From: Escherichia phage C130_2
Reading direction: 5' to 3' (one strand)
Sequence record: MH363708
Length of the DNA stretch: 41,775 nt
In this document: positions 1 to 26,000 of the stretch, piece after piece
Layout of the letters: every line of letters starts with the position of its first letter
How positions within the stretch are numbered: position 1 is the stretch's first letter
Made by a program: the position numbers and the translations under genes
Notes under the pieces: generated by a model
Told to the model about the DNA's origin: nothing
The model's database searches: none
Seen by the model: only the letters and a program-made list of their open reading frames with translations

Positions 1-285
1 TTTCATCGTCTTTGCCTCATTGTTTCGTGAATGTGTGGTGAGCGTACAACAAAGGGGCCGCAGCCGCAAGCCCCTTGATATCCTCCCAGCGAGGCTGGGC
101 TTAAATTGCCCTGTCGCTGCTCTTCGCCAGGTGTCCACCTTTGCCGATCCAGGCGCTGGCGCGCTGGTATTCGCTGGCGATCAACTCGTCGGTAACATAC
201 AGCCCGCCCCGATGATATGCCGCGTTAAACTCCGGCGATTCGTTGTAACCACGGCTCATAGCGTCTGCTATGGCTTCCAGCGCCT
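1..285. repeat. Terminal exact repeat, left copy (identical to 41491-41775)
   Basis: Bases 1-285 match 41491-41775 exactly on direct comparison. Consistent with a circular or circularly permuted genome written with an overlap, or with a short direct terminal repeat. Confidence 0.9.
54..99 (-). terminator. Tandem GC-rich hairpins downstream of gene 101-1222
   Basis: GGGGCCGCAGCCGCAAGCCCC (54-74) and CCCAGCGAGGCTGGG (85-99), followed on the minus strand by a U-rich stretch, then RBS and ATG of the next gene (copy at 41496). Confidence 0.4.
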
Positions 286-1222
286 CGCGTCGCTTCTGCT
301 GCTGGCCCGCCAGGTCTTGCGCTACTGTCTTCACGAATGCTTCGGCATCGGTTGGCTGGGTGCTGCCGTCGCTGCGTGGCGTCGCTGGGTCGCCTTTCAG
401 CACCCAATGCCCCTGCGTCACCTCAATTGCGTTGCCGGACTCGGTGAGCGCTTCCCACGCTTTGAGCGGCACGGCGTGCCCGTGGTTGATCTCCGTCACC
501 AGTGCGCGCGCCTGGCCCACGGTCTGCCCGATCTTCTCCAGACGTGCGGCAAGGTCGGCAATCGGTGGAGGCAGTACGCCACCAGCCAGCGCCAGCCCGT
601 GCAACGATTCGCGCAGGTTGGCTATTGCTTCGCCGTCCTCAACGCTAAACGGCACGCCCTCAAGCGCTTTGCAAAGGTCAAGCGCGCTGGTCGCCAGGTT
701 GCTAACCTGCTTGCGCCAGGTGTCGGCGTCCTGCTTGATCGTGGCGCGCAACTTTTCGTTTTCCTGCTCGGCGTCGGCTAACTGCTGGCAAAGCTGGGTG
801 TTAACATCGTTGATCGCCTTGATCGCCTTGTTCTCTCCCTGCTGGTAGCCCAGCACCTGATCGCGAAGTCTGACGATCTCCGCTTCGGATTCGCGCATAA
901 GGAACTGAAACACGGCTGGCGGCGTGCTCCACTGCCCAGCATTCTTGCGCATTGCCTCGCGTTGCTCGCTCTGCTCCAGTGCGGCGCGCAGTTGTTCGAT
1001 CCGGCTGTGCAACTCATGACTATTGCGCACCCAATCTGCATGACCAATCGCCACCAGCCCGCAGAACGTCACGCCAAACGTTAACAGCGCGCCGGTTGAA
1101 ATGAACGAGGCCGATTCGCCGCCCAAAACCCAGCCAGCCGCAGCCAGCGCCGTTGCCAGTGCCGAAACAATGAGCGCGTGACCTACTCCAAACAATTTGT
1201 TTACCATTGTGATTATTTCCAT
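101..1222 (-). CDS. Membrane protein with N-terminal transmembrane helices and long coiled-coil region, function unknown
   Basis: 373-aa ORF; two to three hydrophobic helices near the N-terminus, then heptad-like Q/E/L/R-rich sequence. Preceded by promoter-like site 1296-1345 and a 16-bp palindrome in the leader. An alternative start at 1207 is possible. Confidence 0.55.
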   Translation of the reverse strand: MEIITMVNKLFGVGHALIVSALATALAAAGWVLGGESASFISTGALLTFGVTFCGLVAIGHADWVRNSHELHSRIEQLRAALEQSEQREAMRKNAGQWSTPPAVFQFLMRESEAEIVRLRDQVLGYQQGENKAIKAINDVNTQLCQQLADAEQENEKLRATIKQDADTWRKQVSNLATSALDLCKALEGVPFSVEDGEAIANLRESLHGLALAGGVLPPPIADLAARLEKIGQTVGQARALVTEINHGHAVPLKAWEALTESGNAIEVTQGHWVLKGDPATPRSDGSTQPTDAEAFVKTVAQDLAGQQQKRREALEAIADAMSRGYNESPEFNAAYHRGGLYVTDELIASEYQRASAWIGKGGHLAKSSDRAI

Positions 1223-8975: not shown

Positions 8976-9287
8976 TCATAGTTTACCTGCCTCCCTTAAG
9001 GTCTGGCGTCTGTTATGCACCTGCGCGAACGTCAGCCCCATTTCTTCGGCAATCTGTCGGCTGGTCTTGTCAGCCTTCACACCGGCGATGATCTGCCGGT
9101 CTTCCTCGGTAGTCCACCAGTGGAAAGCGCGGGTGATCGATATCTCAACCCCCAGCGCGCGTGCGCGTCCGTAAACGGATTGGCGCGGGCGTCCAATGTG
9201 CGCCACGATATCTGGCCCAGGCAGGGTGCCCGCATTGTCCAGGATGAATTGATCTTCCTTCGGTGTAAACGGCTTACCGCGTGGCAT
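8976..9287 (-). CDS. Myb/SANT-like helix-turn-helix DNA-binding protein
   Basis: ATG at 9287 with AAGGGGG RBS; WTTEEDRQII and FTPKEDQFIL motifs typical of Myb-like repeats. Confidence 0.45.
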   Translation of the reverse strand: MPRGKPFTPKEDQFILDNAGTLPGPDIVAHIGRPRQSVYGRARALGVEISITRAFHWWTTEEDRQIIAGVKADKTSRQIAEEMGLTFAQVHNRRQTLREAGKL

Positions 9288-9456
9288 TCTGGCCCCCTTC
9301 TGGCTGATCGTCTGCGAAGCGTAGCGCCTTTTGGCGCAACCCATATTTTGCCAGCGCGCGGATCAGATCGGCCCAATCAAAGCGGCTGCGGAAAACCGCT
9401 TCGGGATTGTCGCCGTTAGCCAGGCGCTTTAGCTGCGTGTGCGTGATTCGTTTCAT
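9274..9456 (-). CDS. Hypothetical small protein (60 aa)
   Basis: Internal ATG at 9456 of track ORF 9274-9582 with GAAGG upstream; overlaps the next gene by 14 nt. Confidence 0.3.
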   Translation of the reverse strand: MKRITHTQLKRLANGDNPEAVFRSRFDWADLIRALAKYGLRQKALRFADDQPEGGQNATR

Positions 9457-9710
9457 AGCCCCTTCAACCTTTTTGGATTGCTTTTTGATTTGGCAATTTC
9501 GGTTTTTATGCCTTCTTTGCCCGCCCGTGTTGCAACTGCAATGCGTGTGGTTTTGCGCGGCTTTTCGTTGAGGTATACGCATTCACCATCGTTGATCACG
9601 GCGATATCGGTCACATCAAAGACCGCCGCGATCTTCGCTATATCGTCAGCCATTCCGGCTTGCTTCACCGCTTGCCATACCTCTTGCCGGTTGCCCTGTC
9701 TGAATCGCAT
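9453..9710 (-). CDS. Hypothetical small protein (85 aa)
   Basis: ATG at 9710 preceded by GGAGG 9 nt upstream, but it overlaps 9646-10083 by 65 nt; an alternative start at 9653 gives an 8-nt overlap. Confidence 0.35.
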   Translation of the reverse strand: MRFRQGNRQEVWQAVKQAGMADDIAKIAAVFDVTDIAVINDGECVYLNEKPRKTTRIAVATRAGKEGIKTEIAKSKSNPKRLKGL

Positions 9711-10713: not shown

Positions 10714-10734
10714 CAAAAAACCGCCCGAAGGCGG
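10714..10734 (-). terminator. Intrinsic terminator (UUCG tetraloop hairpin plus U-run)
   Basis: Minus strand CCGCC-TTCG-GGCGG followed by TTTTTTGTTG, directly after the stop of gene 10735-11529. Confidence 0.6.
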
Positions 10735-11529
10735 TTAATATGGCACGTTGGCATTTGAGAGGAAAACGGCTTCGGCAAAGCCTCGCGGCGTCACACTCCT
10801 GATCGCCTTTGTCCTGGCATTCCGGCCCCCTGCGGCGTACCAGCCAGGATTGCAGCGCTTCCCGTTGATCAGCTGTATGGGCACCGGATTTTTTGGAGGC
10901 ATCACGAATGCTTCATTGCACCAAATGCCGGTTTTCTTCGGGTACGCATCGCGCGGCGGGTAGATCGTCGGGTAGATCGGGTGAGCGTCCACCTCTGGCA
11001 GATAGCCGCCATACTCGAACGGGTCGAAGGTGTGATCCGGCCTTCTCCACTGCGTGTTAAGCGTGTTAACTGCCGGATTCTCAAGCATCCACGGGATCTG
11101 CTTGCCGTCGCCGTTCTGCATGTCGCAGTAACCAGCAACCCACATCACCAGCTTTGCCAGCCTGATCGCGTCCTGCTGATCCTGTCGGCGGTTCGGGTAG
11201 TTTGGATGCGGGCGGCGCTCGCTGGTTGGCAAGTGCTTATCATCTGGATGATAGAACCACTTCGCGCCGGTGGTGGTTAGGTACGTGCATTCAGCGAAGC
11301 TGGCGACGAACTCAACGCCAGGGCCAACCATGCTGGCGATCTCCTGCGCTTGATTCACGATATCATGAGCCTTGAACCACATCCCCACGCGAACGATCAG
11401 AGGATTGACCGGATCGCGGTGAATGCCGTCAGGGTGTTTGCCGTCGAATAACCAACATTCATAACCTGCCCCCAACCAGGGGGCGGGCATAATGTCCGAT
11501 TCGTTAAAAAGGAAAATGGCTTTGCGCAT
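10735..11529 (-). CDS. Hypothetical enzyme-like protein (264 aa), function unknown
   Basis: Long ORF coupled to the upstream gene; His/Asp/Cys-rich; contains ENP and a C-terminal PRGFAEAV segment only faintly like C5-methyltransferase motifs. No confident assignment. Confidence 0.5.
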   Translation of the reverse strand: MRKAIFLFNESDIMPAPWLGAGYECWLFDGKHPDGIHRDPVNPLIVRVGMWFKAHDIVNQAQEIASMVGPGVEFVASFAECTYLTTTGAKWFYHPDDKHLPTSERRPHPNYPNRRQDQQDAIRLAKLVMWVAGYCDMQNGDGKQIPWMLENPAVNTLNTQWRRPDHTFDPFEYGGYLPEVDAHPIYPTIYPPRDAYPKKTGIWCNEAFVMPPKNPVPIQLINGKRCNPGWYAAGGRNARTKAIRSVTPRGFAEAVFLSNANVPY

Positions 11530-11533
11530 ATTT

Positions 11534-11746
11534 TTACGCCTGATTTTGCGCGCGGTCTAATTCGCGCTCGGTTGCGGTGATCACCACATAATCATGCTTT
11601 TCCATGCTGGCGAAACGAGCCAAAGCACCATCGCTTAAAAGCTGGAAAATAAAGTGATCGGAAACGCGGCTTGTTGATTCAGCCAGATCGCGCAACTGCT
11701 CAAGCTGGGTGACGGTTAATTGTGATGCGTGGATTGCAAATATCAT
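11534..11746 (-). CDS. Hypothetical small protein (70 aa)
   Basis: ATG at 11746 with AAGGA RBS; overlapping stop-start with the upstream gene. Confidence 0.4.
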   Translation of the reverse strand: MIFAIHASQLTVTQLEQLRDLAESTSRVSDHFIFQLLSDGALARFASMEKHDYVVITATERELDRAQNQA

Positions 11747-11958
11747 TGTGCGTGATCCTTTACTGATTGGCGATATTCCGCAAGGTCTTTGCGGGCCATT
11801 TCGGGCCATGATGAAACCGGTGCAACGCGGTATTCATCGAAATAAGAAGCATCAAGACTTTTTGCAAATTCTTCTGCCTCTGCAACGGTGCTGCATTCGC
11901 CGGAACCGATCAGGAATCCGACGATAAAATAAACCCACTGACGTTGTTTATGATCCAC
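11743..11958 (-). CDS. Hypothetical small membrane-associated protein (71 aa), GTG start
   Basis: GTG at 11958 preceded by AAGGGG; hydrophobic N-terminus WVYFIVGFLIGSG. Confidence 0.4.
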   Translation of the reverse strand: MDHKQRQWVYFIVGFLIGSGECSTVAEAEEFAKSLDASYFDEYRVAPVSSWPEMARKDLAEYRQSVKDHAQ

Positions 11959-11968
11959 TTATAACCCC

Positions 11969-12553
11969 TTAAAGGCGCGCTGGCATTACGGCATATTCAG
12001 CAACGCCGTTGTGCGATTTGATTTCGACAAATGCGGCGGTTGTCGCATCCTGTAAAGTAATTTTTACGATACTTGATTTCATCTGCAATGCCTTGCAAAT
12101 GCGCGTGATTACTGCGAAGTATTCGACGTTGAAGCCGATAACCTTTACACCTTCGCGCTTGCTGTCAACTTCCGTAAACACTCGGCGCAAATCAGGATAA
12201 CGCCCATCAACAAGATCCACGGTGCCCACTGCCACGCGCGCTGCCTTCAAATCAACGTCTTTGAGATCTTCCGGCTTATCGTATGCCAGCGGGAGCCAGT
12301 ACACGATCCCCGCGTCAACGTCGATTGCCGCAGTCTCAATGCCGCGCATGTTCGGCACCTTCGACACTTTCAACAATAAGCCGGTTTCCGGCGCGTTGAT
12401 CAGGTCATGCGTCAGACGAAAGGCGCGGTGCCCGTCCGTTGCCTGGATCTGGTTGCCGATGAAATGCAGGGCGTTAAGGTAATAACGCACATCGTTTTGC
12501 GCCTGGCATAAATGAGCCGCTTTAATGTGCTGCGCTTTTGCAAAAATAATCAT
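11969..12553 (-). CDS. DnaN-like protein: truncated beta sliding clamp homolog (domains II-III only)
   Basis: 194 aa. Blocks NDVRYYLNALHF..ATDGHRAFRL, DLVDGRYPDLRRVF, IGFNVEYF and C-terminal AEYAVMPARL match, as recalled, the E. coli beta-clamp segments QDVRYYLNGMLF..ATDGHRLAV, KLVDGRFPDYRRVLP, IGFNVSYV and AAYVVMPMRL. Has its own AGAGG RBS and ATG, with no domain I upstream. Confidence 0.7.
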   Translation of the reverse strand: MIIFAKAQHIKAAHLCQAQNDVRYYLNALHFIGNQIQATDGHRAFRLTHDLINAPETGLLLKVSKVPNMRGIETAAIDVDAGIVYWLPLAYDKPEDLKDVDLKAARVAVGTVDLVDGRYPDLRRVFTEVDSKREGVKVIGFNVEYFAVITRICKALQMKSSIVKITLQDATTAAFVEIKSHNGVAEYAVMPARL

Positions 12554-12600
12554 AGTCTTTGCCTCTTCTGGTAAAGCCCCATTGCTGGGGCTGTATCGCG

Positions 12601-13329
12601 TTATAAGACGCTTGCGGAAGCGTCCAGCATATCTTGCTTAGTAAGATAATCCGTCTTCACTGGCCCGCGTTTGCGTGGCTTAATCAGGAATAGTGAACTT
12701 GCCTTACTGTTTTTCCGGCCTTCCACTTCGGTTGCCGCATTCACGAATGCTACGCGCCCGTTATGGAATTTTTCTTCGCCTTTGGCGTCGGTGCCGTAAT
12801 AGCCCATGATGTTTACAATCTCGCTGCACGCCTGGATCATGTCATAGAACCATTGCGGCGAGTGGTCATGATTCAGAAGCATAACCGTTGTCACGCCATG
12901 CTGTTTTGCATTTCGTGCTGCTGCTGCAACCCAGGGGATCGGGTCTGCATACGGTGGATTACACCAGACGGTTTCCCCCTCCTTGCCCCATGCCACCTGC
13001 GGATCCAGCGCGTTTTGCTGCTCGTCGATAAACTCAACGCAAAGGGCGTTTCCGGCCTCTGCCGCAACGTCACGCGCGAACGGCCCCCAGCGGTGATCGG
13101 CATAGTTAAACAACCATTTTGGGGTGCGCCATTTCTGCCGGATAGCGTCAGGGGTTTTGCTCTTCGCAAAGCGTCGGCCCGTAATGACCTGATCCACTTC
13201 CTCCGGGGTTGCCGCCAGCGCGCCAGCGCCAGCCGCTTTCAATGCCTCTTCCAGCACCGCTTGCGGGATCGCAAAGTCTGCTGCCACCTGCGCAAGATCA
13301 ACGGTCTTGCTGTCGTTTTCGTCTTTCAT
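12601..13329 (-). CDS. DNA N6-adenine methyltransferase (phage Dam-like)
   Basis: Catalytic motif WCNPPY; ATG at 13329 overlapping the dUTPase stop (TGATG). Confidence 0.8.
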   Translation of the reverse strand: MKDENDSKTVDLAQVAADFAIPQAVLEEALKAAGAGALAATPEEVDQVITGRRFAKSKTPDAIRQKWRTPKWLFNYADHRWGPFARDVAAEAGNALCVEFIDEQQNALDPQVAWGKEGETVWCNPPYADPIPWVAAAARNAKQHGVTTVMLLNHDHSPQWFYDMIQACSEIVNIMGYYGTDAKGEEKFHNGRVAFVNAATEVEGRKNSKASSLFLIKPRKRGPVKTDYLTKQDMLDASASVL

Positions 13330-13781
13330 CACTTCGCCTTTTTATCAGTTGAGCCAAAGCCGTTGGCACCGCGTGCCGTGTCTTTGATCGTTTCCACTTC
13401 CGCGATCTGCCACTGCGGCGCGTCAACGATCATGCCCTGGGCAATAGCCGTGGTTGGGTCAATGGCTGGATATTCGCCGGTAGGGCGATCAGAAACGATT
13501 TTTACTTTCACCTCTCCGGTATAGTCGCTATCGATCACCCCCACGCAATTTGACAAGCGCGCATCCTGCTTGAATCCGTGCCCGCTGCGGCTGTAAATCA
13601 TCAGGGCTTTGCCCTTCGGAATGTCGAATACCAGCCCCGTTGAGAAGATCAGGGCGTTGATTTTTTCGTCGTAACTGCTTTCGATCCCGTAAATGTCGAA
13701 ACATGCTGATCCCTCGGTTGCATATTCTGGCAGACGCGCCAGGGGGTTTAACTTCTTAACGCCTAACACATTTGATCCCAT
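13329..13781 (-). CDS. dut: dUTP diphosphatase (dUTPase)
   Basis: Motifs SRSG, GVIDSDYTGE and C-terminal RGANGFGST characteristic of trimeric dUTPases; GAGG RBS. Confidence 0.85.
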   Translation of the reverse strand: MGSNVLGVKKLNPLARLPEYATEGSACFDIYGIESSYDEKINALIFSTGLVFDIPKGKALMIYSRSGHGFKQDARLSNCVGVIDSDYTGEVKVKIVSDRPTGEYPAIDPTTAIAQGMIVDAPQWQIAEVETIKDTARGANGFGSTDKKAK

Positions 13782-13811
13782 TGTTGGTGCCTCGTTGGTG
13801 AGTGGTGAAAC

Positions 13812-13857
13812 ATACTATATATAAAGACTTTGCAAACGCTTTAGCAATTCGTGCTAT
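13812..13857 (-). promoter_or_regulatory. Promoter-like bipartite element (site D)
   Basis: Minus strand ATAGCACGAATTGCTAAAGC, 18 bp, TATATATAGTATG, upstream of dUTPase. Confidence 0.5.
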
Positions 13858-13939
13858 TCTCTAACTGTCTTTGTTTCCTTCTGCTTTTTTTAGCCAGCCA
13901 GCTAACGCCGCGCCTTCTCCCTTTGGTTGCGGCTTTTTT

Positions 13940-14782
13940 TCAGCTTAACCACGCATTCATTGCCCCTGTGATATCCAGACCGGCGCGCACCCTGCCGCAA
14001 TCCTGGTATAAATAGATCTCGTCCTGATCCAGCGCCACCAATCGCACTTCACGATCACCCCTGTAGCGTGCTGAAACCTCGCGGCAGTTCAGCGGGGTAA
14101 AGCCGATCCATATCTCGCAACCCTTCGCGGGGCCGTCATGCTCTGCCATTGCCACGGCACAAAGGGGATCGCTGATCAGGTAGATTGGCCCGTCTTGCAG
14201 CCCCTTTGCTGGGTGGATCACTGCCACTGCGCCCCAGGTGCGAAGACCTGCCGCAAAGTGTACTGATCGATCAGGGTCTACCCGCGCCAGATTGCAGAAT
14301 TGAAGCGACGCGCCCGACTCGGCAACCTTCCTGCATGGCAGATAGGCTGATCCCTTTCTCCCCCCAGCACGCGCCATGCTCACAACTTTATCGTGCGGGA
14401 TCTCCGCGCTGTTCCTGGTGGTCTTGCTCTTCGATATGGCTTTAGCCTCTCTGGCGACGCTCTCGCGCCGTTCTGGCGTCATGCCCCCCAGCCAATCACC
14501 CAAATCATTGATCGCCTCGTTAAACGGCTGCATACGCGCTTTCATGAACCAATAAAGCCCATCATGCGAGCCGCCGCAGTCGCCGGAACAATACGCGAAA
14601 CCTTCCTCGCGCTTTTGCGGTTTTTTGTGGCCCCAGCGGAAGCGATCAACGCCGCCGCAGATGGGGCAAGATTGGTGGTTGCCGTCAAAGTTTTTGTGCT
14701 GCCAGCCGCACAACTCGATCAACGCCTTTTCCCACTTATCCCGCATTCCTCGCAAAACTGTTTGCTTGTCATGGATTGCCAT
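13940..14782 (-). CDS. Putative DNA primase (zinc-ribbon plus TOPRIM-like)
   Basis: 280 aa; CPICGG...YCSGDCG zinc-binding motif and an acidic LVALDQDE segment; divergent from the helicase gene. Confidence 0.45.
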   Translation of the reverse strand: MAIHDKQTVLRGMRDKWEKALIELCGWQHKNFDGNHQSCPICGGVDRFRWGHKKPQKREEGFAYCSGDCGGSHDGLYWFMKARMQPFNEAINDLGDWLGGMTPERRESVAREAKAISKSKTTRNSAEIPHDKVVSMARAGGRKGSAYLPCRKVAESGASLQFCNLARVDPDRSVHFAAGLRTWGAVAVIHPAKGLQDGPIYLISDPLCAVAMAEHDGPAKGCEIWIGFTPLNCREVSARYRGDREVRLVALDQDEIYLYQDCGRVRAGLDITGAMNAWLS

Positions 14783-14804
14783 TTTTGCCGGTGTCCGTTA
14801 TATT
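14776..14804 (+). promoter_or_regulatory. Sigma70-like promoter for the helicase / recombination operon
   Basis: TTGCCA, 17 bp, TATATT, about 40 nt upstream of ATG 14846 (RBS GGAG). Confidence 0.4.
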
Positions 14805-14845
14805 CATGAATCAGTCAGGTAGAAGAATAACGGAGCAAAAGACAA

Positions 14846-16903
14846 ATGGCAACCGCTGACACGTTAGAAAGCACCTTCGCAGAAAGGTTGATGGAAACGA
14901 TAGAAGACCGGATCGCCCGCACGCCGATTGAAGATCTGATCCGGCAGTTTGGCGATCTGCCGCTGGATCCTTACCCCTATCAGTGGGCCGCTTATGACGC
15001 GGTGGCGCAGTGCATCCGAAAATACCCAGGGCCGGTGATCGTTGAAGCGGCAGTGAGCGCGGGCAAAACGATCATGATCTCCATGCTGGCGCGCCGCATC
15101 ATGCAGTTGCCGTGGGATGATGAAAACCCAGCGAAAAAGCACCGCGCTTGTGTGCTGTCTCGCCAGGCTGAGATCATCGATCAGGATGCGCAGGAATTGT
15201 GGAATTTTCACGTAAACAACTCCATTTTCTGCGCTGGCCTGGGCAACAAAAAATCAACCCATTATCCCATCGTGTGCGGCAGTGAAGGCACGATGGTTAA
15301 CAGTCTGTTTGACAAGCTGGCAGACTTCGCCCCGCTCTTCCTGATCATTGACGAATGCCACCACGTCAACATTGACGATCTGATCGAATCCGAAGAAAGG
15401 ATGGTGCCCGACTACCTCAAAGACGAAAACGGCGCACTTGTTCTGGAAGACGGCGAGCCTGTCCAGATTGGCGAGCACAAAGGCGAGAATTACGAGGAAA
15501 TGATCGCCGCAAAGCGCAACGCTTACACGATCATAATCAGGACTTTGCAGGAGCGGTGCCTTAAGGTTCACGGGTGCCGGTTGCGCGTGATCGGTTACAC
15601 CGGCACCCCTTACCGTGGGGTTGATTCCATCGTCAATGAGGATTACGAAACGCCAGGATTTTGGCGCAAGACGGTGATCCGCATCACGACAAATTACCTG
15701 GTAAAAGTCGGTTCAGTTGTGCCCACTTACTTTGGCGTGTCGTCGCTGGGTTATCAGTTGGATCAGTTCGCCAGCTTCACTGAGTTTGGGGCGAAGGATT
15801 TTAGCAACAACGAAATGATCGCCATGCAGCGGCAGATCCTGAAAGATAAAAAGCTGACCTGGAAGATCATGCAAGAAGTGGTGGAACTCACCAAAGAGCG
15901 CAACGGGGTTTTAGTCACCTGCGCTGGTGTGGCCCACTGCAAAGAGGCCGCAGCGGCCCTGCCGGACGGCATAAGCTATGCGATCATCACGGAAGACACC
16001 GGCCCGAAAAAGCGAATGGAGATCATCGAAGACGCGAAGGCCGGAAAGATAAAATTCATCTTCCAGGTTAACGCCCTTACAACGGGCGTGAATGTGCCCC
16101 TGTGGGATACTTCCGTTATCCTGCGCCGTATTGGGTCACTCACCCTGTTGGTGCAACTGCTGGGCCGTGGGATGCGTATTTTAAAGGATTGGATGATTGA
16201 AGCCGGATTCAAGAAGAGCGATCACCTCGTCCTGGACTATTCGGGCACTATGGCTGCAATGGGCGGGCTGTATGAGGATCCGATCCTTGAAGATTACGTG
16301 TACACCGTGGACAAGGTGAAAGAGGATTGGAAGGAATGCAAATACGGGCACAAAAACGGCAAGCACGCGCGCCGCTGCCGCCACATTCACCCCAACGGCG
16401 AGCGCTGCGATGATTTCTTTGTTTATAAGCTCTGCGAAGACGTCAAAGACCGCAGCACGGGCCGCATCTTGCAGAAGGGCTGCGGGGCCAAAAATGACAC
16501 CGTGGCGCGCCAGTGCCGCTGCTGTGGCAACCTCCTGATCGATCCAAACAAAAACCTATCCGGCGAGCATTACACGGATAAAGATTATTGCGACGTGATC
16601 AGCTTTACGCCGCAGGTTGGCAACGGTGGATCCTTCGCTATTGAGTATCAACTCATGAAGGATGGGATCCAGTTTAAGGCGTGGGAAATTCACTGGCCCA
16701 ACTCCAAAAACCCTGGGGCGAAACAGCTATGGAACCAGTTTTTAAAAGAGCATGTTTTCATGCCGGAGCACCGCGCCACGTTGAAGGCGTGCAAATCTGC
16801 CGAAGCCGTGTTGGCTAACGTATCGTTGATCCTCCCCCCAAAGCGGGTGACGCATCGTAAAATGGGAAGCGGCAAAGATAACGTTTACAAAAAGGTATTT
16901 TGA
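14846..16903 (+). CDS. SF2 DEAD/DEAH-box family helicase with C-terminal zinc-ribbon
   Basis: Walker A AAVSAGKT, Walker B / DEAH-like LIIDECHH, C-terminal Cys clusters (CRHIHPNGERC, CRCCG). Confidence 0.8.
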   Translation: MATADTLESTFAERLMETIEDRIARTPIEDLIRQFGDLPLDPYPYQWAAYDAVAQCIRKYPGPVIVEAAVSAGKTIMISMLARRIMQLPWDDENPAKKHRACVLSRQAEIIDQDAQELWNFHVNNSIFCAGLGNKKSTHYPIVCGSEGTMVNSLFDKLADFAPLFLIIDECHHVNIDDLIESEERMVPDYLKDENGALVLEDGEPVQIGEHKGENYEEMIAAKRNAYTIIIRTLQERCLKVHGCRLRVIGYTGTPYRGVDSIVNEDYETPGFWRKTVIRITTNYLVKVGSVVPTYFGVSSLGYQLDQFASFTEFGAKDFSNNEMIAMQRQILKDKKLTWKIMQEVVELTKERNGVLVTCAGVAHCKEAAAALPDGISYAIITEDTGPKKRMEIIEDAKAGKIKFIFQVNALTTGVNVPLWDTSVILRRIGSLTLLVQLLGRGMRILKDWMIEAGFKKSDHLVLDYSGTMAAMGGLYEDPILEDYVYTVDKVKEDWKECKYGHKNGKHARRCRHIHPNGERCDDFFVYKLCEDVKDRSTGRILQKGCGAKNDTVARQCRCCGNLLIDPNKNLSGEHYTDKDYCDVISFTPQVGNGGSFAIEYQLMKDGIQFKAWEIHWPNSKNPGAKQLWNQFLKEHVFMPEHRATLKACKSAEAVLANVSLILPPKRVTHRKMGSGKDNVYKKVF

Positions 16904-20704: not shown

Positions 20705-20733
20705 ATAAGGGGCCATTGCGGCCCCTTTTTTTA
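20705..20733. terminator. Bidirectional intrinsic terminator between the plus-strand block and the tailspike gene
   Basis: A-run, GGGGCCATTGCGGCCCC, T7. Confidence 0.65.
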
Positions 20734-22983
20734 TGTTGGCGTGCGGAACGACACAACTTTTGCCGCTGCAAGCTGGGTGCCAGCCGGTGTGGCGGTCTGG
20801 ATAGCGTGAGCAATATCGATCCTGATCTCACTGGTTGGATCGTTCACGTTGACACGATAAGGCCCGCGCGTGATCCACGTAGAAAGAGGATTGCCCCCTT
20901 CACCGGCACCAGGGATCACAATTCGGCACCCTGGCGAAAGTGGCGTTTTGTAGATCCAGACCATATCACCATTATTGCCACCTAGCGGAAAGTTTGAAGC
21001 AATCGAGAAGGATCCCACGGTGGTTGCCTTGATTTTAAATTCATCAATGGCGGGAATGTACGCGCCGGAGGCGGTCACAACGAAGATCTTTCCGTCATTT
21101 CGAACAACGAGATCCCCCTCCATGAACTCACGCCCCGTGGGGAATGCGTTACCATCCCAAATGCCCGTGGCGTTCATATCAGCCGGTGACGGAATGATAT
21201 AAGTGTGATTCGATGCGGTCATTTTTGCACCGATCCCGCCGTCAATCCCCTGGCGCGGATATGGGCGCGCAAAGACGTTGGATCCTACGCTTTCGATATG
21301 CGAATAGGCGCAGCGTGACCAACCTTGATCGCCGTAGCCGTTCACGTCAGTTGCGTTAACGTTGACCATTCGCAAGATGGTGCGCCCCGTGGCAAGGTAG
21401 CCGTTTGAAGCTGTGCCGCCCGATGAATCATCACCCACGCAATCAAAGATCCGGCAATGAACATTGCTCATGTTCAATTCAGTTGCCACACCGAAAAGCG
21501 AGAATTTCGCCACGTTCACATTTTCAATGTAATACGTGTTAGTTGCCCCTGCCTTCTCGGTGCCGATACCGGCATAAAAGCGCCCTGTTTTACTGTATAC
21601 GTTGCGGATCGCCATATCGTGACAAGGGCCGCGCGCGCCAACGCCAGCATTTGTGCCCCATTCAAGCATAATAACGCGCACATCCTGGGCAAGCGTGCTG
21701 CCGGTAACTACCGGTTCACCGTAAACCCCATCAATGGAGCAACGGCGGGAGCCGTAGAAAAGCACCGTCGCAACCGTCAGGCCGGAACCGTTCGAAACGT
21801 TCTGGTTGGGGTCGCCGTGGATGTTTTCAACAACGGAATCACGAACCATTTCGAAGTGTACGATCTGACGCACTTTGTTTGCGTAAACGTTACGGATCGT
21901 AATGTTTTTGGCAAAGTTTGCGTCAGGTGTATCAATGCCATAAGGGCTTTGACCTGCAACCCCAATCCCAATACCCCAGTTTGACGGCGTGATCGGGGCT
22001 TGGCCTGTTGAGTCGATGTTATCAAGGAAAATGCCGTCAATCAGGCAACCATTATCATAATGGCGCTGTACTACGTTTAACTCGATCCCGTCGCCGCCCA
22101 TATCGTAAAACGACAAATTGCGGTAGACGCCGGACACAACCGTTGATCCCGTGCCTTGCTGGAGGATGCCGTAAAGGCCATTCCGAAACTCGGAATCGCT
22201 GACCTCAATAGTGCTTCCGTCCACTGGCACACCCTGCATCATGATTGATGCAACCTTGCTGGTTGTCGGCTTACCGTCAAACATGCAATCGCGGATCCTT
22301 ACGTCGCCGCCGTAGTGCATGATTCGCAGGTTGTTAATCACTGCACCTTCGATCAGGGTGTCAGTCAGGCGAAAATCTGCGGTGCCCTTCCAGGTTCCCC
22401 CCATGATGGTGATCCCATTCGGGTTGACCGTGCTTTCAAGCGTGCCAGACCAACCATAAGCGTTGACGATCTTCCCGTTCGCTTTGGCGTAGTCAAACAT
22501 TGCCTGAATCGCCTGTGAAACGCTGGTGTACTCTTCGCGGCCCACAAAATCAAACGGCGTCACAAAGCCTTGCAGTTTGGTTTTTAGCGTGCCTTCTGGC
22601 GTGCCCACGTATTCCCAGCCGGTAGACGATCCGATCACCTTCCACATCTGCGCCGCGTCATATTCCAGAAGGTTATCAAAGGAATATTGCAGCACGTCAT
22701 TGCGATCATAAACGTCCATGCTTGATGCGGTCTGCGTCACAAAGCGCCCAACAATCCCGTTATATTCGGGATAGCCGCTCTGGTTGATTTTGATCGGCTG
22801 CGGCACCGGCACCAGCGTTAGATCCTCATTTTCCAGGTACACTTGCACCTGATTTGCCGGATCCTTCGGGTTGGTGTCGGGCTTGCCAATATAGATATCA
22901 CCGCCGCTGATAGGCGCAAACTTGCCAACCTGAATAAACGGGCTGGACGGCATACGCACGGCAGAAAAAACAATATCGCTCAT
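20731..22983 (-). CDS. Tailspike protein (P22-like N-terminal head-binding domain, beta-helix receptor-binding domain)
   Basis: ATG at 22983 with GAGG RBS; N-terminus GDIYIGKPDTNPKDPANQVQVYLENED...PIKINQSG..YNG matches the P22 tailspike head-binding domain as recalled; rest is Gly/Asn/Val-rich, consistent with a parallel beta-helix. Confidence 0.85.
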   Translation of the reverse strand: MSDIVFSAVRMPSSPFIQVGKFAPISGGDIYIGKPDTNPKDPANQVQVYLENEDLTLVPVPQPIKINQSGYPEYNGIVGRFVTQTASSMDVYDRNDVLQYSFDNLLEYDAAQMWKVIGSSTGWEYVGTPEGTLKTKLQGFVTPFDFVGREEYTSVSQAIQAMFDYAKANGKIVNAYGWSGTLESTVNPNGITIMGGTWKGTADFRLTDTLIEGAVINNLRIMHYGGDVRIRDCMFDGKPTTSKVASIMMQGVPVDGSTIEVSDSEFRNGLYGILQQGTGSTVVSGVYRNLSFYDMGGDGIELNVVQRHYDNGCLIDGIFLDNIDSTGQAPITPSNWGIGIGVAGQSPYGIDTPDANFAKNITIRNVYANKVRQIVHFEMVRDSVVENIHGDPNQNVSNGSGLTVATVLFYGSRRCSIDGVYGEPVVTGSTLAQDVRVIMLEWGTNAGVGARGPCHDMAIRNVYSKTGRFYAGIGTEKAGATNTYYIENVNVAKFSLFGVATELNMSNVHCRIFDCVGDDSSGGTASNGYLATGRTILRMVNVNATDVNGYGDQGWSRCAYSHIESVGSNVFARPYPRQGIDGGIGAKMTASNHTYIIPSPADMNATGIWDGNAFPTGREFMEGDLVVRNDGKIFVVTASGAYIPAIDEFKIKATTVGSFSIASNFPLGGNNGDMVWIYKTPLSPGCRIVIPGAGEGGNPLSTWITRGPYRVNVNDPTSEIRIDIAHAIQTATPAGTQLAAAKVVSFRTPT

Positions 22984-23035
22984 TGTTGGTGCCTCGTTGT
23001 TGTATTCAGGCTTTAGTGTATAGACGTTCAGGAAA

Positions 23036-23057
23036 TTAAAAAAGGGGCCGAAGCCCC
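23036..23057 (-). terminator. Intrinsic terminator (UUCG hairpin plus U-run) upstream of tailspike
   Basis: Minus strand GGGGC-TTCG-GCCCC followed by TTTTTTT; the 20-mer is identical to the terminator at 31301-31320. Confidence 0.6.
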
Positions 23058-23062
23058 TTTGG

Positions 23063-26000
23063 TTACTGCTGCCCGTAGATCTGGATCCGCTGCTCACCGT
23101 CAGGGCCGGTGATTAACGGCGGGCGCTCGTCGGTCTGCTCACCGTCGCTGGCTGCTGCCGCTGCCGGAGTACCGGCAAGCCATGCGATGAAACCAGCGCG
23201 GGCGATTTGACGTTGATCAGCCTCGGCAAGCGTGGCGATAAAGTCTTGGGCCGCTTTGCTGTTCGCAAGGCGTCGCTCTGTGGTGTTGATGATCGTCCGG
23301 CTTGGGCCGCTGGATCCATCGTCTGCCACCATGCGAGCAACCGCCCTGATCGCCTGGGTCATATCATCACCGGCGAGGAAACGATCCGCAACCTGCGAAG
23401 CCGCAGCACGGTTGGCAACTGCCCCGCGCGCAGCCTCAACGGCAACGTTACCGAAGCCAGGAGAAACCGCAGCCGCCGCCGATTGCGTCAACATGGCACC
23501 GATCCGCGTGTTAAAGACTTTATCCAAAAAGTCATTGCTGTTGTTGAAGCGGCGCGAAAAGTTGTTGATCTTGCCGGTGGCGGCGAAAGATTCACCCTCT
23601 TTGCGGGCTGCGTTGGCGACTTTCGCCAGGTTGTCAACAACTGCACGCTGATCCGCTGGCAGGTGCTGCATGAGCATTCCCAATTTGCCTGAGTTGCGCG
23701 CCTCGGTGTACCACTTCGCAAAGCCTGGAATGTTCAGGCGTTCGCCGGTGGTGCCGCTCATGCGGAATGCCATTGCAAGCGCGTTGGTCGCAACCTGCGG
23801 GCGCATAGCCGCTGGCGTTGATCGCATGAGAGTTTGAAAACCCTTTGGATCTGCGCCTTTGGTGCCCAGCGCTTTAACAGCCTGATAAATCTTGCTGCTT
23901 GCGGAATTATCAAGCTCTTTGCCCAGCACGGCTTGCTGTTTGGCCTGTAGCGCCACGCGCTGACGGGTCAGATCCTTTGCCGCATCCCACGCATCTTTCA
24001 CGCCAAACTGTGCCGCCACATCCCCTTGATCCTCGGTTAAACGGCTGTACATGGCGTTAAGGCGCGCAACGTTCGCATCCTTGTATGGGCCTTGACGCTT
24101 GTTAATCGCCGCGCCAACGTCTTTGCGCACATCGTCCAGAAGGGCGAAAGTCGGCCCGCCTCGGCTGTCGCTGGTTGGGCTTAGGCGTTCCAATACGCTA
24201 CGCTCAATCGGATCCAGGTTGGCTGCGCCGCCACGGTTACTGGCTTTCTGGTTGAGGTAATCAACCGTCTTTTCTGGATTTACCGGAGTGTGATCCGGGA
24301 TCGTGCGCAATGATTTGTTATAGGCCGCAGTTTCAGCGGTGCCGATATCATCGATCAGTCGGCTTGTCTCTGCCTTGAATGCCTGATCGAAGGTGAGATC
24401 CTCAACCGGCCCGCCTAAGTCTTCCAGCACCTTATCTGCGCGGGCAGTCAACGCCTGATACTGGCGGCTCTGCTTCTCACCCAAAAGGGATCCGGTTTCG
24501 CTGCGCAGGTTGCCGATCACGTCGCGGGTTGACTTGTCGCGCATAAACAGGCCAGGCGTCAGATCGTCAGTCACGCCCAATTCATCTGCGGCGCGCACAA
24601 CCTCTGGATCGATATCGCCACGGCGCGCAAGGTTGATCGCCGCGTTCGGTGCGCTGGAAGTCTCGCCGGTTGCCGCGTCGGTTACTGTGGTGCGCGGTGC
24701 GCTTCCGCGTGCTGCTGCGGTTGCATCCTGTCGCACGGCGTCAATAGCGGCTTGTTGCGTCGCTTCTGCGCCACCAGTACCAGTGCCAGTGCCCGCGCCC
24801 GTTGCGTCCTCTGCTGGGCGGATCAGATCACGGATCACCGGTGCTGCACGCCGTGCGGCTGCGCCAACGGCATTTACTGCCGCCTCGCCCACTGGCCCTG
24901 CTGCGATGCCGATCAGCGCGTCTTGCTGGTCGCCTTCGCTGGCTGCAAGGGCACCTGGCACGGCACGGGTTGCCGGTGCTGCGATCCGTTGCTCAAGGAA
25001 TCCCCCCAAACGGGAAAGGATGCTCGCAACCTCTGGCGAAGCTGTGCCCGCCAATTCTGCCATTTCGCGTGCGATACCCTGAATTTTCGGGGCTGCTGAC
25101 ATAGCCGCGCCACCAGGGATCGGGGTCAGACCGGCGATCAACTTCGCGCCAAACTGAGCATAAGGATCTTCGGGATCATCAAGCCCCATGCCGATCCGGC
25201 CTTCGGGGATCGGGGTATAGGTGCCGTCACCCAGCCCAACTTGCTTGCCCAGCCATGCACCGGCAGACTGTGCCGCGTTCGCTGCATAGATCGGGATGTT
25301 GAGCACGTCTTCTGCTGCGCGCACTAAACCTTTGCCCGCCTGAGTCAGATCGCGCCCAATCGTTGTGGGTGCCTGGTAATCCTGCAACTGCTCTGCGCTG
25401 TAGTAGTCGCCGCTGGTGTCTGGTTGCGGCTGTGCGGCGCTCTGCTGCGTCGTGGCGGCTTGCGGCTGTGGTTGGGTGTCCATAGTCGCTTGCGGCTGTT
25501 CTGGCGCTGCTGGCTGCGTTTCCTGCGGTGCTCGCGGGGTCAGTTCGCCAAACTGGCTGGCAAATTTGTTGGTTGATCCGGTGTCGCCGGCACGGGCGCT
25601 GGTTGCCCGCTGTGGCGCGTCGGAGTCTGTGACCGCACCCAAAGCGCGATCAATCGGGTTAACGCCGCCCGTCCACTGGTCAAAGCGTGAATCGACGTAT
25701 TGACGCCCTTCCGGCCCTGGGGTGTACTCGCCTTTTAACATGGCGTCGGTGTTGCCTGGGCCGTCATGGTACGCTTGCAGGGCCAGCCCCCAATCGCCGT
25801 AGCGGTCATACATCTGGCGCAGGTATTTTGCGCCCGCTTCGGCCTGTAGCGCAGGATTGTTGCGCACCTCTGCTGGGTCATAGCCCATATCGCGCAGCGT
25901 GCCTGGCATAACCTGAGTGCCACCAATGGCACCTTTGCTGGACGTTGCGCCAGTGTCGCCGCCAGACTCTTTGCCAACGAGCGCAGACATAAGCCCTTCT

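Follow-up and report, generated by a model that had tools for sequence, protein, structure and literature searches.

Short phage and prophage relatives of the bacterial beta sliding clamp retain the residues of the partner-binding pocket and lack the canonical ring interface

Within a stretch of 41,775 nucleotides from Escherichia phage C130_2 (sequence record MH363708; the whole stretch is referred to as the window), an open reading frame (ORF) on the minus strand at positions 11969-12553 encodes a protein of 194 amino acids with the C-terminal sequence ...VMPARL. This protein, here termed mini-clamp, is a shortened derivative of the bacterial beta sliding clamp (DnaN), as evidenced by both homology and fold. 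It comprises about one and a half clamp domains with two of the four inner helices expected for two domains, and the pocket with which sliding clamps bind their partners is the most conserved feature of its family, a very large one made up of uniformly short proteins from phages and prophages. With a probability of about 0.5, we read mini-clamp as a non-canonical, pocket-retaining clamp mimic that would bind host proteins carrying a clamp-binding motif (CBM) and either recruit or sequester them.

In a phmmer search against all PDB sequences, beta clamps were the only proteins matched by mini-clamp. The best match, beta of Escherichia coli (E~1e-6), was made up of three collinear blocks in which residues 10-44, 110-129 and 133-194 of the query correspond to beta 139-177, 232-251 and 310-366 and share the motifs RYYLNG/TDGHR, DGRFPDYRRV and GFNxxY...MPxRL, respectively. 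A hidden Markov model (HMM) derived from 25 homologues aligned with E. coli DnaN at E=2.4e-23, covering beta 136-254 and 315-366, and an AlphaFold2 (AF2) model of the monomer displays the DNA-clamp fold with its repeated beta-alpha-beta-beta-beta units (predicted local distance difference test, pLDDT, 85.7; predicted template modeling score, pTM, 0.84). Comparison with DnaN by profile and by structure, which the original prediction had named as its own check, thus supports the assignment. On the other side, a Pfam scan yielded PF02767 alone (E=0.11, 13.2 bits vs. a cut-off of 27) and no match to PF00712 or PF02768, and TIGR00663 (DnaN) reached 15.1 bits, which is under its cut-off of 137.65. 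With its 194 residues the protein is therefore not a member of DnaN as delimited by three tandem domains, a length of ~366 residues and scores above the HMM cut-offs.

Two segments of E. coli beta are absent from mini-clamp, namely domain I and beta 255-314, the latter constituting the first beta-alpha-beta-beta-beta half of domain III. In addition, the second inner helix of domain II has become a loop of 10 residues (residues 64-73, DSSP assignment on the AF2 model) with a proline, P67, that is conserved in 83% of the family. What remains can be divided into three parts, all encoded on the minus strand. Residues 1-116 (positions 12206-12553, equivalent to beta ~125-240), delimited by alignment blocks, DSSP and conservation, form a domain II-like module with the pocket and DNA-loop motifs DVRYYLN and TDGHR; residues 88-107 of this module are a subfamily-specific insertion that does not occur in relatives of 170-180 amino acids. 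Residues 117-137 (12143-12205) constitute an interdomain linker that was placed on the basis of the alignment blocks and contains the motif GRYPDLRRV (equivalent to beta G240-V247), followed by a variable stretch standing in place of beta 255-314. Residues 138-194 (11972-12142, equivalent to beta 315-366), as judged from the alignment and from a tandem model described below, correspond to the C-terminal half of domain III and build a single beta-alpha-beta-beta-beta unit featuring GFNxxY (N320, Y323) and MPARL (M362-L366). The original prediction had described a homolog consisting of domains II and III without domain I and with a C-terminal MPxRL. Derivation from DnaN, the end of the protein in MPARL and the lack of domain I all hold true, the profile aligning only with beta 136-254 and 315-366, while "domains II-III" claims too much, as beta 255-314 and the second helix of domain II are missing.

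To judge pocket and interface we relied on the residue lists for the CBM pocket and for the dimer interface given in a recent review (PMC11139829). All 18 pocket residues fall into the retained segments, and 14 of them (R152, L155, T172, G174, H175, R176, P242, R246, V247, N320, Y323, M362, P363 and R365) are identical to those of E. coli beta, with P242, R246 and V247 being supplied by the GRYPDLRRV motif of the linker. At the level of sequence, the CBM pocket with its subsites I and II, located between domains II and III, is accordingly present. Moreover, seven of the eight family-invariant columns are pocket residues. Conservation was also assessed in an alignment of 145 complete representatives found among the top 150 of the profile search reported below, which have a mean column identity of 17%. 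Here, the pocket accounts for 10 of the 20 best-conserved positions (145 homologues, hypergeometric p=3e-7), which are headed by G41, R23, P120, M190, D21, Y25, H42, P191, L26 and Y145. The prediction that the partner-binding cleft has been kept is thus borne out by the identity of the pocket residues as well as by their dominance in the conservation of the family, which is under strong purifying selection. In sliding clamps, domain II and domain III, the latter with its C-terminal half, share the sheet on which the pocket lies; mini-clamp is in effect this pocket-bearing module plus the remainder of domain II.

The canonical head-to-tail dimer interface (I78, F106, I272, L273, E298, E304) is not found in these proteins. 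I272, L273, E298 and E304 fall into alignment gaps in every family member, while I78 and F106, together with R103, belong to the wholly absent domain I. As a consequence of this deletion, mixed rings with host beta, one of the arrangements originally envisaged, are unlikely to form through the normal interface. A PCNA-like trimer of two-domain subunits, also proposed, does not fit either because half of domain III is missing: PCNA and gp45 protomers consist of two complete domains and a connecting loop, and in mini-clamp the linker is followed by just 57 residues (138-194). Two of the three mechanisms considered in the original prediction are thereby disfavored. These findings also bear on the possibility that the protein poisons host beta directly, either by capping an opened monomer or through mixed rings, and thereby blocks replication of the host chromosome. 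Such an activity would be compatible with the clamp fold and with the edge sheet of domain II, which, going by clamp architecture, should be the pseudo-symmetric counterpart of the sheet through which domain I normally contacts the domain III of a partner subunit, and phage proteins that target beta do exist, e.g., Twort Gp168 (PDB 7evp). However, all canonical interface residues lie in the deleted segments, and poisoning of beta would leave the top conservation of the pocket unexplained. We consider it highly improbable.

The family was delineated by an exhaustive profile search over 1.84 billion cluster representatives, which returned 10,307 matches at E<1e-3 and 2,234 at E<1e-10. The top 150 cluster representatives are all short; a few of them are fragments of 104-148 amino acids and nearly all others align end to end, the aligned family members having 165-214 residues with a median of 188. 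By tblastn, no fewer than 233 phage records contain a member (Salmonella 98, Escherichia 62, Klebsiella 26, others), and many short structural neighbors of 163-250 amino acids in BFVD stem from phages of Pantoea, Serratia, Burkholderia, Xanthomonas and Rhodococcus. Members also reside in prophages integrated in large plasmids, two of which, L008 and L009, carry the gene at their positions 9001-9567 and 9001-9564, respectively. Among 5,426 complete E. coli genomes, 61 carry a homologue of the L008 gene, which PGAP labels as hypothetical. Neither sequence nor structure searches of the PDB revealed a solved structure of the short family, and full-text literature searches did not retrieve any study devoted to it. 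With regard to the original statement that the arrangement is not a characterized system, the lack of a precedent in the literature is in agreement, but the arrangement is not rare and represents a very large family that is already annotated.

The family appears to be widespread in databases yet uncharacterized and inconsistently annotated, with record labels ranging from "DNA polymerase III beta subunit" through "hypothetical protein" to "RusA-like Holliday junction resolvase", the last being attached to nine of 40 phage records among the matches listed. Its source is the description of PHROG 3007, a profile that mini-clamp matches over its full length (E=4.5e-38, residues 1-194 vs. profile positions 1-186 of 190) and from which the wording has been copied into many RefSeq/GenBank phage genomes. 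Since the family has the beta-clamp fold, the RusA label is a systematic misannotation. A RusA identity of mini-clamp was rejected on the grounds of its confident clamp fold and because the protein does not belong to the RusA fold or family, searches of Pfam, of the PDB and of structures having matched neither a RusA structure nor a RusA Pfam family.

A frameshifted full-length dnaN had to be considered as well. The gene possesses its own ribosome-binding site, GAGG at 12562-12565 (minus strand, read from the sequence), 8 nt 5' of the ATG at 12553-12551. Its upstream neighbor (12601-13332, minus strand) is a complete Dam-type N6-adenine methyltransferase gene (PF05869, E=1.6e-41), the TAA stop of which lies 47 nt ahead of the mini-clamp start codon, and a coding sequence for domain I can therefore not be hidden upstream. 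In line with the original prediction, we are thus dealing with a 194-residue ORF with its own start and ribosome-binding site and not with a remnant of a continuous dnaN, and the frameshift explanation is discarded. Taken in its broader form, the notion that a captured dnaN is in decay here, or that the protein is a RusA-like resolvase, could appeal to the PHROG 3007 description, to the many records so labeled and to scores that miss the DnaN thresholds of Pfam and TIGRFAM. It is refuted by the data on fold and family, i.e., by thousands of intact members of uniform length with shared motifs and by an AF2 model without any RusA counterpart, and a VRR-NUC nuclease encoded in the window is already a candidate resolvase. 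We assign virtually no weight to it.

As a lone half-domain is expected to be unstable, a tandem fusion of the type X-(GGGGS)6-X was folded with AF2, using a 28-sequence alignment fused in the same manner. The resulting model reached a pTM of 0.81 over 418 residues with a disordered GGGGS linker (pLDDT<50), a value that excludes two independently tumbling copies in spite of the disordered linker. For residues 121-142, pLDDT increased from 73/70 in the monomer, where the linker is found at 70-79, to 84/90 in the tandem model; edge strands 136-142 and 162-166 were newly defined in both copies, and new matches of ~100-110 residues to single PCNA domains emerged (root-mean-square deviation 2.2-2.6). 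The model suggests that two half-domains pair to yield one complete clamp domain, with residues 138-194 serving as the dimerization element, and the predicted dimer is a symmetric three-domain arc with two pockets that differs from the canonical ring. On or beside the two retained helices, positions 11, 19, 151, 154 and 159 are occupied by lysine or arginine in 61-79% of the members, and the isoelectric point (pI) amounts to 8.3 in the family median and 8.5 in this protein as compared to 5.2 in E. coli beta. On the basis of the conserved basic positions and the basic pI, contact with DNA is possible. Taken further, mini-clamp might represent a new quaternary solution, in which protomers of one and a half domains assemble by half-domain complementation into a two-pocket arc, maybe into a ring of four protomers, and capture host Pol III and other clients onto phage and prophage DNA independently of a loader. 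Such an assembly could be regarded as a portable, minimal clamp-client receptor. We propose this tentatively and regard it as possible.

The same features could be taken as signs of a genuine processivity factor that encircles or cradles DNA and holds a polymerase, either Pol III of the host or a phage-encoded Pol I, on the DNA of the phage. It might do so by closing into a ring of six domains from four protomers or by acting as a C-clamp that needs no loader, as UL44 of human cytomegalovirus does. The pocket is retained, basic residues are conserved on both retained channel helices, the pI of the family is basic, the DNA-contact loop of beta (residues 148-152, HQDVR) is kept as highly conserved xxDVR, and the arc of the predicted dimer would correspond to roughly one half of a ring; moreover, the gene sits inside the replication operon in this phage and in phage Lumpael, and the family is also found alongside a phage Pol I. 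A working analogy may be provided by the herpesvirus proteins UL44, UL42, BMRF1 and PF-8, clamp-fold factors that do not form closed rings and that bind a polymerase peptide in the region of the clamp pocket and DNA via a basic face without the help of a loader. UL44 is a C-clamp that forms a head-to-head dimer, as is predicted for mini-clamp, but in the herpesvirus factors both domains are complete, and the polymerase they serve is that of the virus itself. Processivity as the function of mini-clamp is called into question by the presence of two of the four expected inner helices per protomer, by the deletion of the canonical ring interface and by the lack of a clamp loader gene in the window, in which all ORFs of at least 373 amino acids and the whole replication module were scanned. 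Many phages, in addition, carry the gene away from replication genes, in the structural module, in an anti-restriction operon or in a pL-like region. We regard this function as rather doubtful.

Genomic context was compared across phages and prophages. With Stutzerimonas phage vB_SstS_STP9 the window shares 94% identity, and it is syntenic with the Murrayvirus Lumpael. Its replication and recombination genes encode an AAA_25 helicase, a primase, a SNF2-type helicase, the VRR-NUC nuclease, ExoVIII, Erf, SSB, a dUTPase and two methyltransferases, while the remaining large ORFs with a family match are structural. In Lumpael the mini-clamp gene is located in the replication operon just as in the C130_2 window. 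Both in Akira and in LPSTLL a small early operon ends with it; this operon opens with an anti-restriction gene and a ParB-like gene in LPSTLL and includes EaC and a DNA-binding protein in Akira. In the Dhillonvirus TheodorHerzl it is a lone gene on the opposite strand inside the structural module. Prophages of the lambdoid type harbor the homologue in a pL-like accessory region between a CI-like repressor and xis/int, with Rha/ORF6N/BRO-N antirepressor-like genes and a SPFH/Band_7 gene as neighbors. No neighboring gene is conserved across the phages and prophages compared, and QL[SD]LF or QxxLxF motifs are absent from the 20 ORFs scanned, among them all early and replication genes, and a phage-encoded CBM partner thus did not emerge from them. 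The combination of these two negative results argues for a stand-alone factor with host ligands, and the varied context (early operon here, anti-restriction operon, pL-like region, lone gene) likewise fits a stand-alone factor acting on the host.

The 71-residue ORF at 11743-11958 was considered as a source of the missing half-domain in trans and rejected as a general solution because the neighbors are wholly different in Akira, TheodorHerzl, LPSTLL and the prophages. A link between mini-clamp and the lack of a phage polymerase was rejected as a rule, too. The original prediction had correctly stated that the phage encodes no DNA polymerase, as none was detected in the window in the scans of all ORFs of at least 373 amino acids and of the replication module, and the polymerase-less pattern holds in the window, in LPSTLL and in the 24.6 kb of Lumpael viewed. 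The argument built on it, that manipulation of the host clamp follows from the lack of a polymerase, does not generalize, since TheodorHerzl encodes its own DNA polymerase I beside its mini-clamp family member.

A moron-like, variable genomic position of this kind would also be expected for an anti-defense or host-takeover decoy, i.e., a beta mimic that intercepts a host factor acting through the pocket without replication being the target. Conceivable targets are a DnaN-targeting defense effector or toxin, or MutS/MutL, the removal of which would favor recombination by Erf/ExoVIII. The operon partners in LPSTLL (anti-restriction and ParB-like proteins) and Akira (EaC and the DNA-binding protein), the placement of prophage copies among accessory genes between repressor and xis/int and the Erf/ExoVIII recombination modules of carrier phages, all of them contextual evidence, point in this direction. 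However, no defense system working via the CBM pocket was found in the literature, and the sole anti-defense gene mapped in Dhillonvirus, anti-Tmn, encodes a different protein: identity of the mini-clamp gene with anti-Tmn was rejected, as the latter is a helical rod protein, ORF35. Overall, we hold a decoy function to be unlikely.

Consensus scans, which give matches to consensus and not proof, place mini-clamp in a putative leftward early operon (10719-14852, minus strand) that runs from a promoter-like site at 14852-14824 through genes for primase, dUTPase, Dam methyltransferase, mini-clamp, two small ORFs and the second methyltransferase to a strong terminator-like hairpin at 10736-10719. 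The two methyltransferase genes, phrog_757 (10735-11529, minus strand) and Dam (PF05869), differ from each other and flank mini-clamp within the operon, and a two-methyltransferase arrangement around mini-clamp is also present in Lumpael. The 47-nt spacer between the Dam stop codon and mini-clamp contains, ahead of the ribosome-binding site, a 6-bp GC-rich hairpin (AGCCCC-n6-GGGGCT, 12575-12592, minus strand, read from the sequence) that has no T-run, was not called in the terminator scan and may be an element of RNA processing or stability. Downstream of mini-clamp, an ATGA start/stop overlap at 11743-11746 (minus strand) joins the 71-residue ORF to the next one, provided that the latter starts at the internal ATG 11746 and has 70 and not the 91 amino acids listed from 11809; the overlap suggests translational coupling of these two small genes. 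Divergent sigma-70-like promoter matches (14776-14852) occupy the 63-nt gap between the genes for primase (minus strand) and SNF2-type helicase (plus strand), from which early control of the replication and recombination genes is probably exerted. Elsewhere in the window, neither Pfam nor PHROG yielded a match for a 373-residue ORF at 101-1222 (minus strand) at the applied thresholds, and the tailspike at 20731-23097 (minus strand) matches colanic-acid-degrading tailspikes (phrog_6117, E=1.5e-220). Given this tailspike and the fact that all other relatives infect Salmonella or E. coli, the recorded host of phage STP9, Stutzerimonas stutzeri, looks surprising.

If mini-clamp is indeed a pocket-retaining mimic, it would be expressed from the early operon early in infection, and its pocket would bind CBM peptides of the QL[SD]LF type in clients of host beta. 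Candidates are Pol III alpha and epsilon, the loader subunit delta, Hda, Pol II, IV and V, MutS/MutL and ligase. Mini-clamp would thereby compete with host beta or replace it. In our judgment, the most likely outcome would be that components of the host replisome, either Pol III alpha and epsilon or delta, are diverted to phage DNA, with mini-clamp acting as a bivalent adaptor that is possibly DNA-bound, a DNA tether perhaps being provided by the conserved basic residues of the two retained helices. Another possibility is the sequestration of repair or regulatory clients. Several points weigh against such a role. Four pocket residues differ from E. coli beta (L177A, V360A, V344T and M364A), and specificity may thus have moved off canonical CBMs. 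The enrichment of the pocket among conserved positions is partly circular because these positions are conserved in DnaN, too, and are weighted in retrieval by the profile. Furthermore, sequestering alpha or delta indiscriminately would hurt a phage that relies on the Pol III of its host, and the presence of family members in phages that encode a Pol I raises the possibility that lineages differ in client and purpose.

Among the closest known systems is bacterial beta (DnaN; E. coli P0A988; PDB 1MMI, 3PWE), with which mini-clamp shares homology over beta 136-254 and 315-366, 14 of the 18 pocket residues and MPxRL. It differs from DnaN by its length (194 vs. 366 residues), by the lack of domain I, of the first half of domain III, of the second domain II helix and of the canonical dimer interface, by its basic character (pI 8.5 vs. 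5.2) and by its failure to reach the HMM thresholds; its predicted pairing is head-to-head via the half-domain, unlike the head-to-tail ring of DnaN. Full-length phage beta clamps and gp45 of T4 and RB69 likewise belong to the clamp superfamily, are encoded by phages and possess a partner-binding pocket, and gp45 sets a precedent for clamps with fewer than three domains per chain. However, the phage beta clamps (345-395 amino acids) have three complete domains and gp45 has two, both form closed rings and T4 possesses a dedicated loader, while mini-clamp has one and a half domains and is not accompanied by a loader gene in the window. Phage strategies centered on the beta-clamp hub, a feature shared with mini-clamp, are exemplified by Twort Gp168, N4 gp8, which is directed against the delta subunit, and MuC of phage Mu. 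MuC uses beta for late transcription, and phage use of the clamp thus reaches beyond replication (PMC12867686). Gp168, gp8 and MuC are of small size, bear no relation to mini-clamp and bind the clamp or the loader of the host, whereas mini-clamp derives from a clamp and would have the clients, not the clamp, as its targets.

The pocket of the beta clamp is a hub of bacterial replication and repair and a target for antibiotics. A widespread phage protein pared down essentially to this pocket implies that phages routinely manipulate the network of clamp clients, by a route that has not been described. A practical gain is the correction of the "RusA-like Holliday junction resolvase" annotation. 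If the proposed role is confirmed, the family would offer a natural minimal scaffold for the study or inhibition of clamp-client interactions and might account for the recruitment of host Pol III by phages that lack a polymerase, and half-domain complementation would add a new assembly mode to the clamp superfamily.
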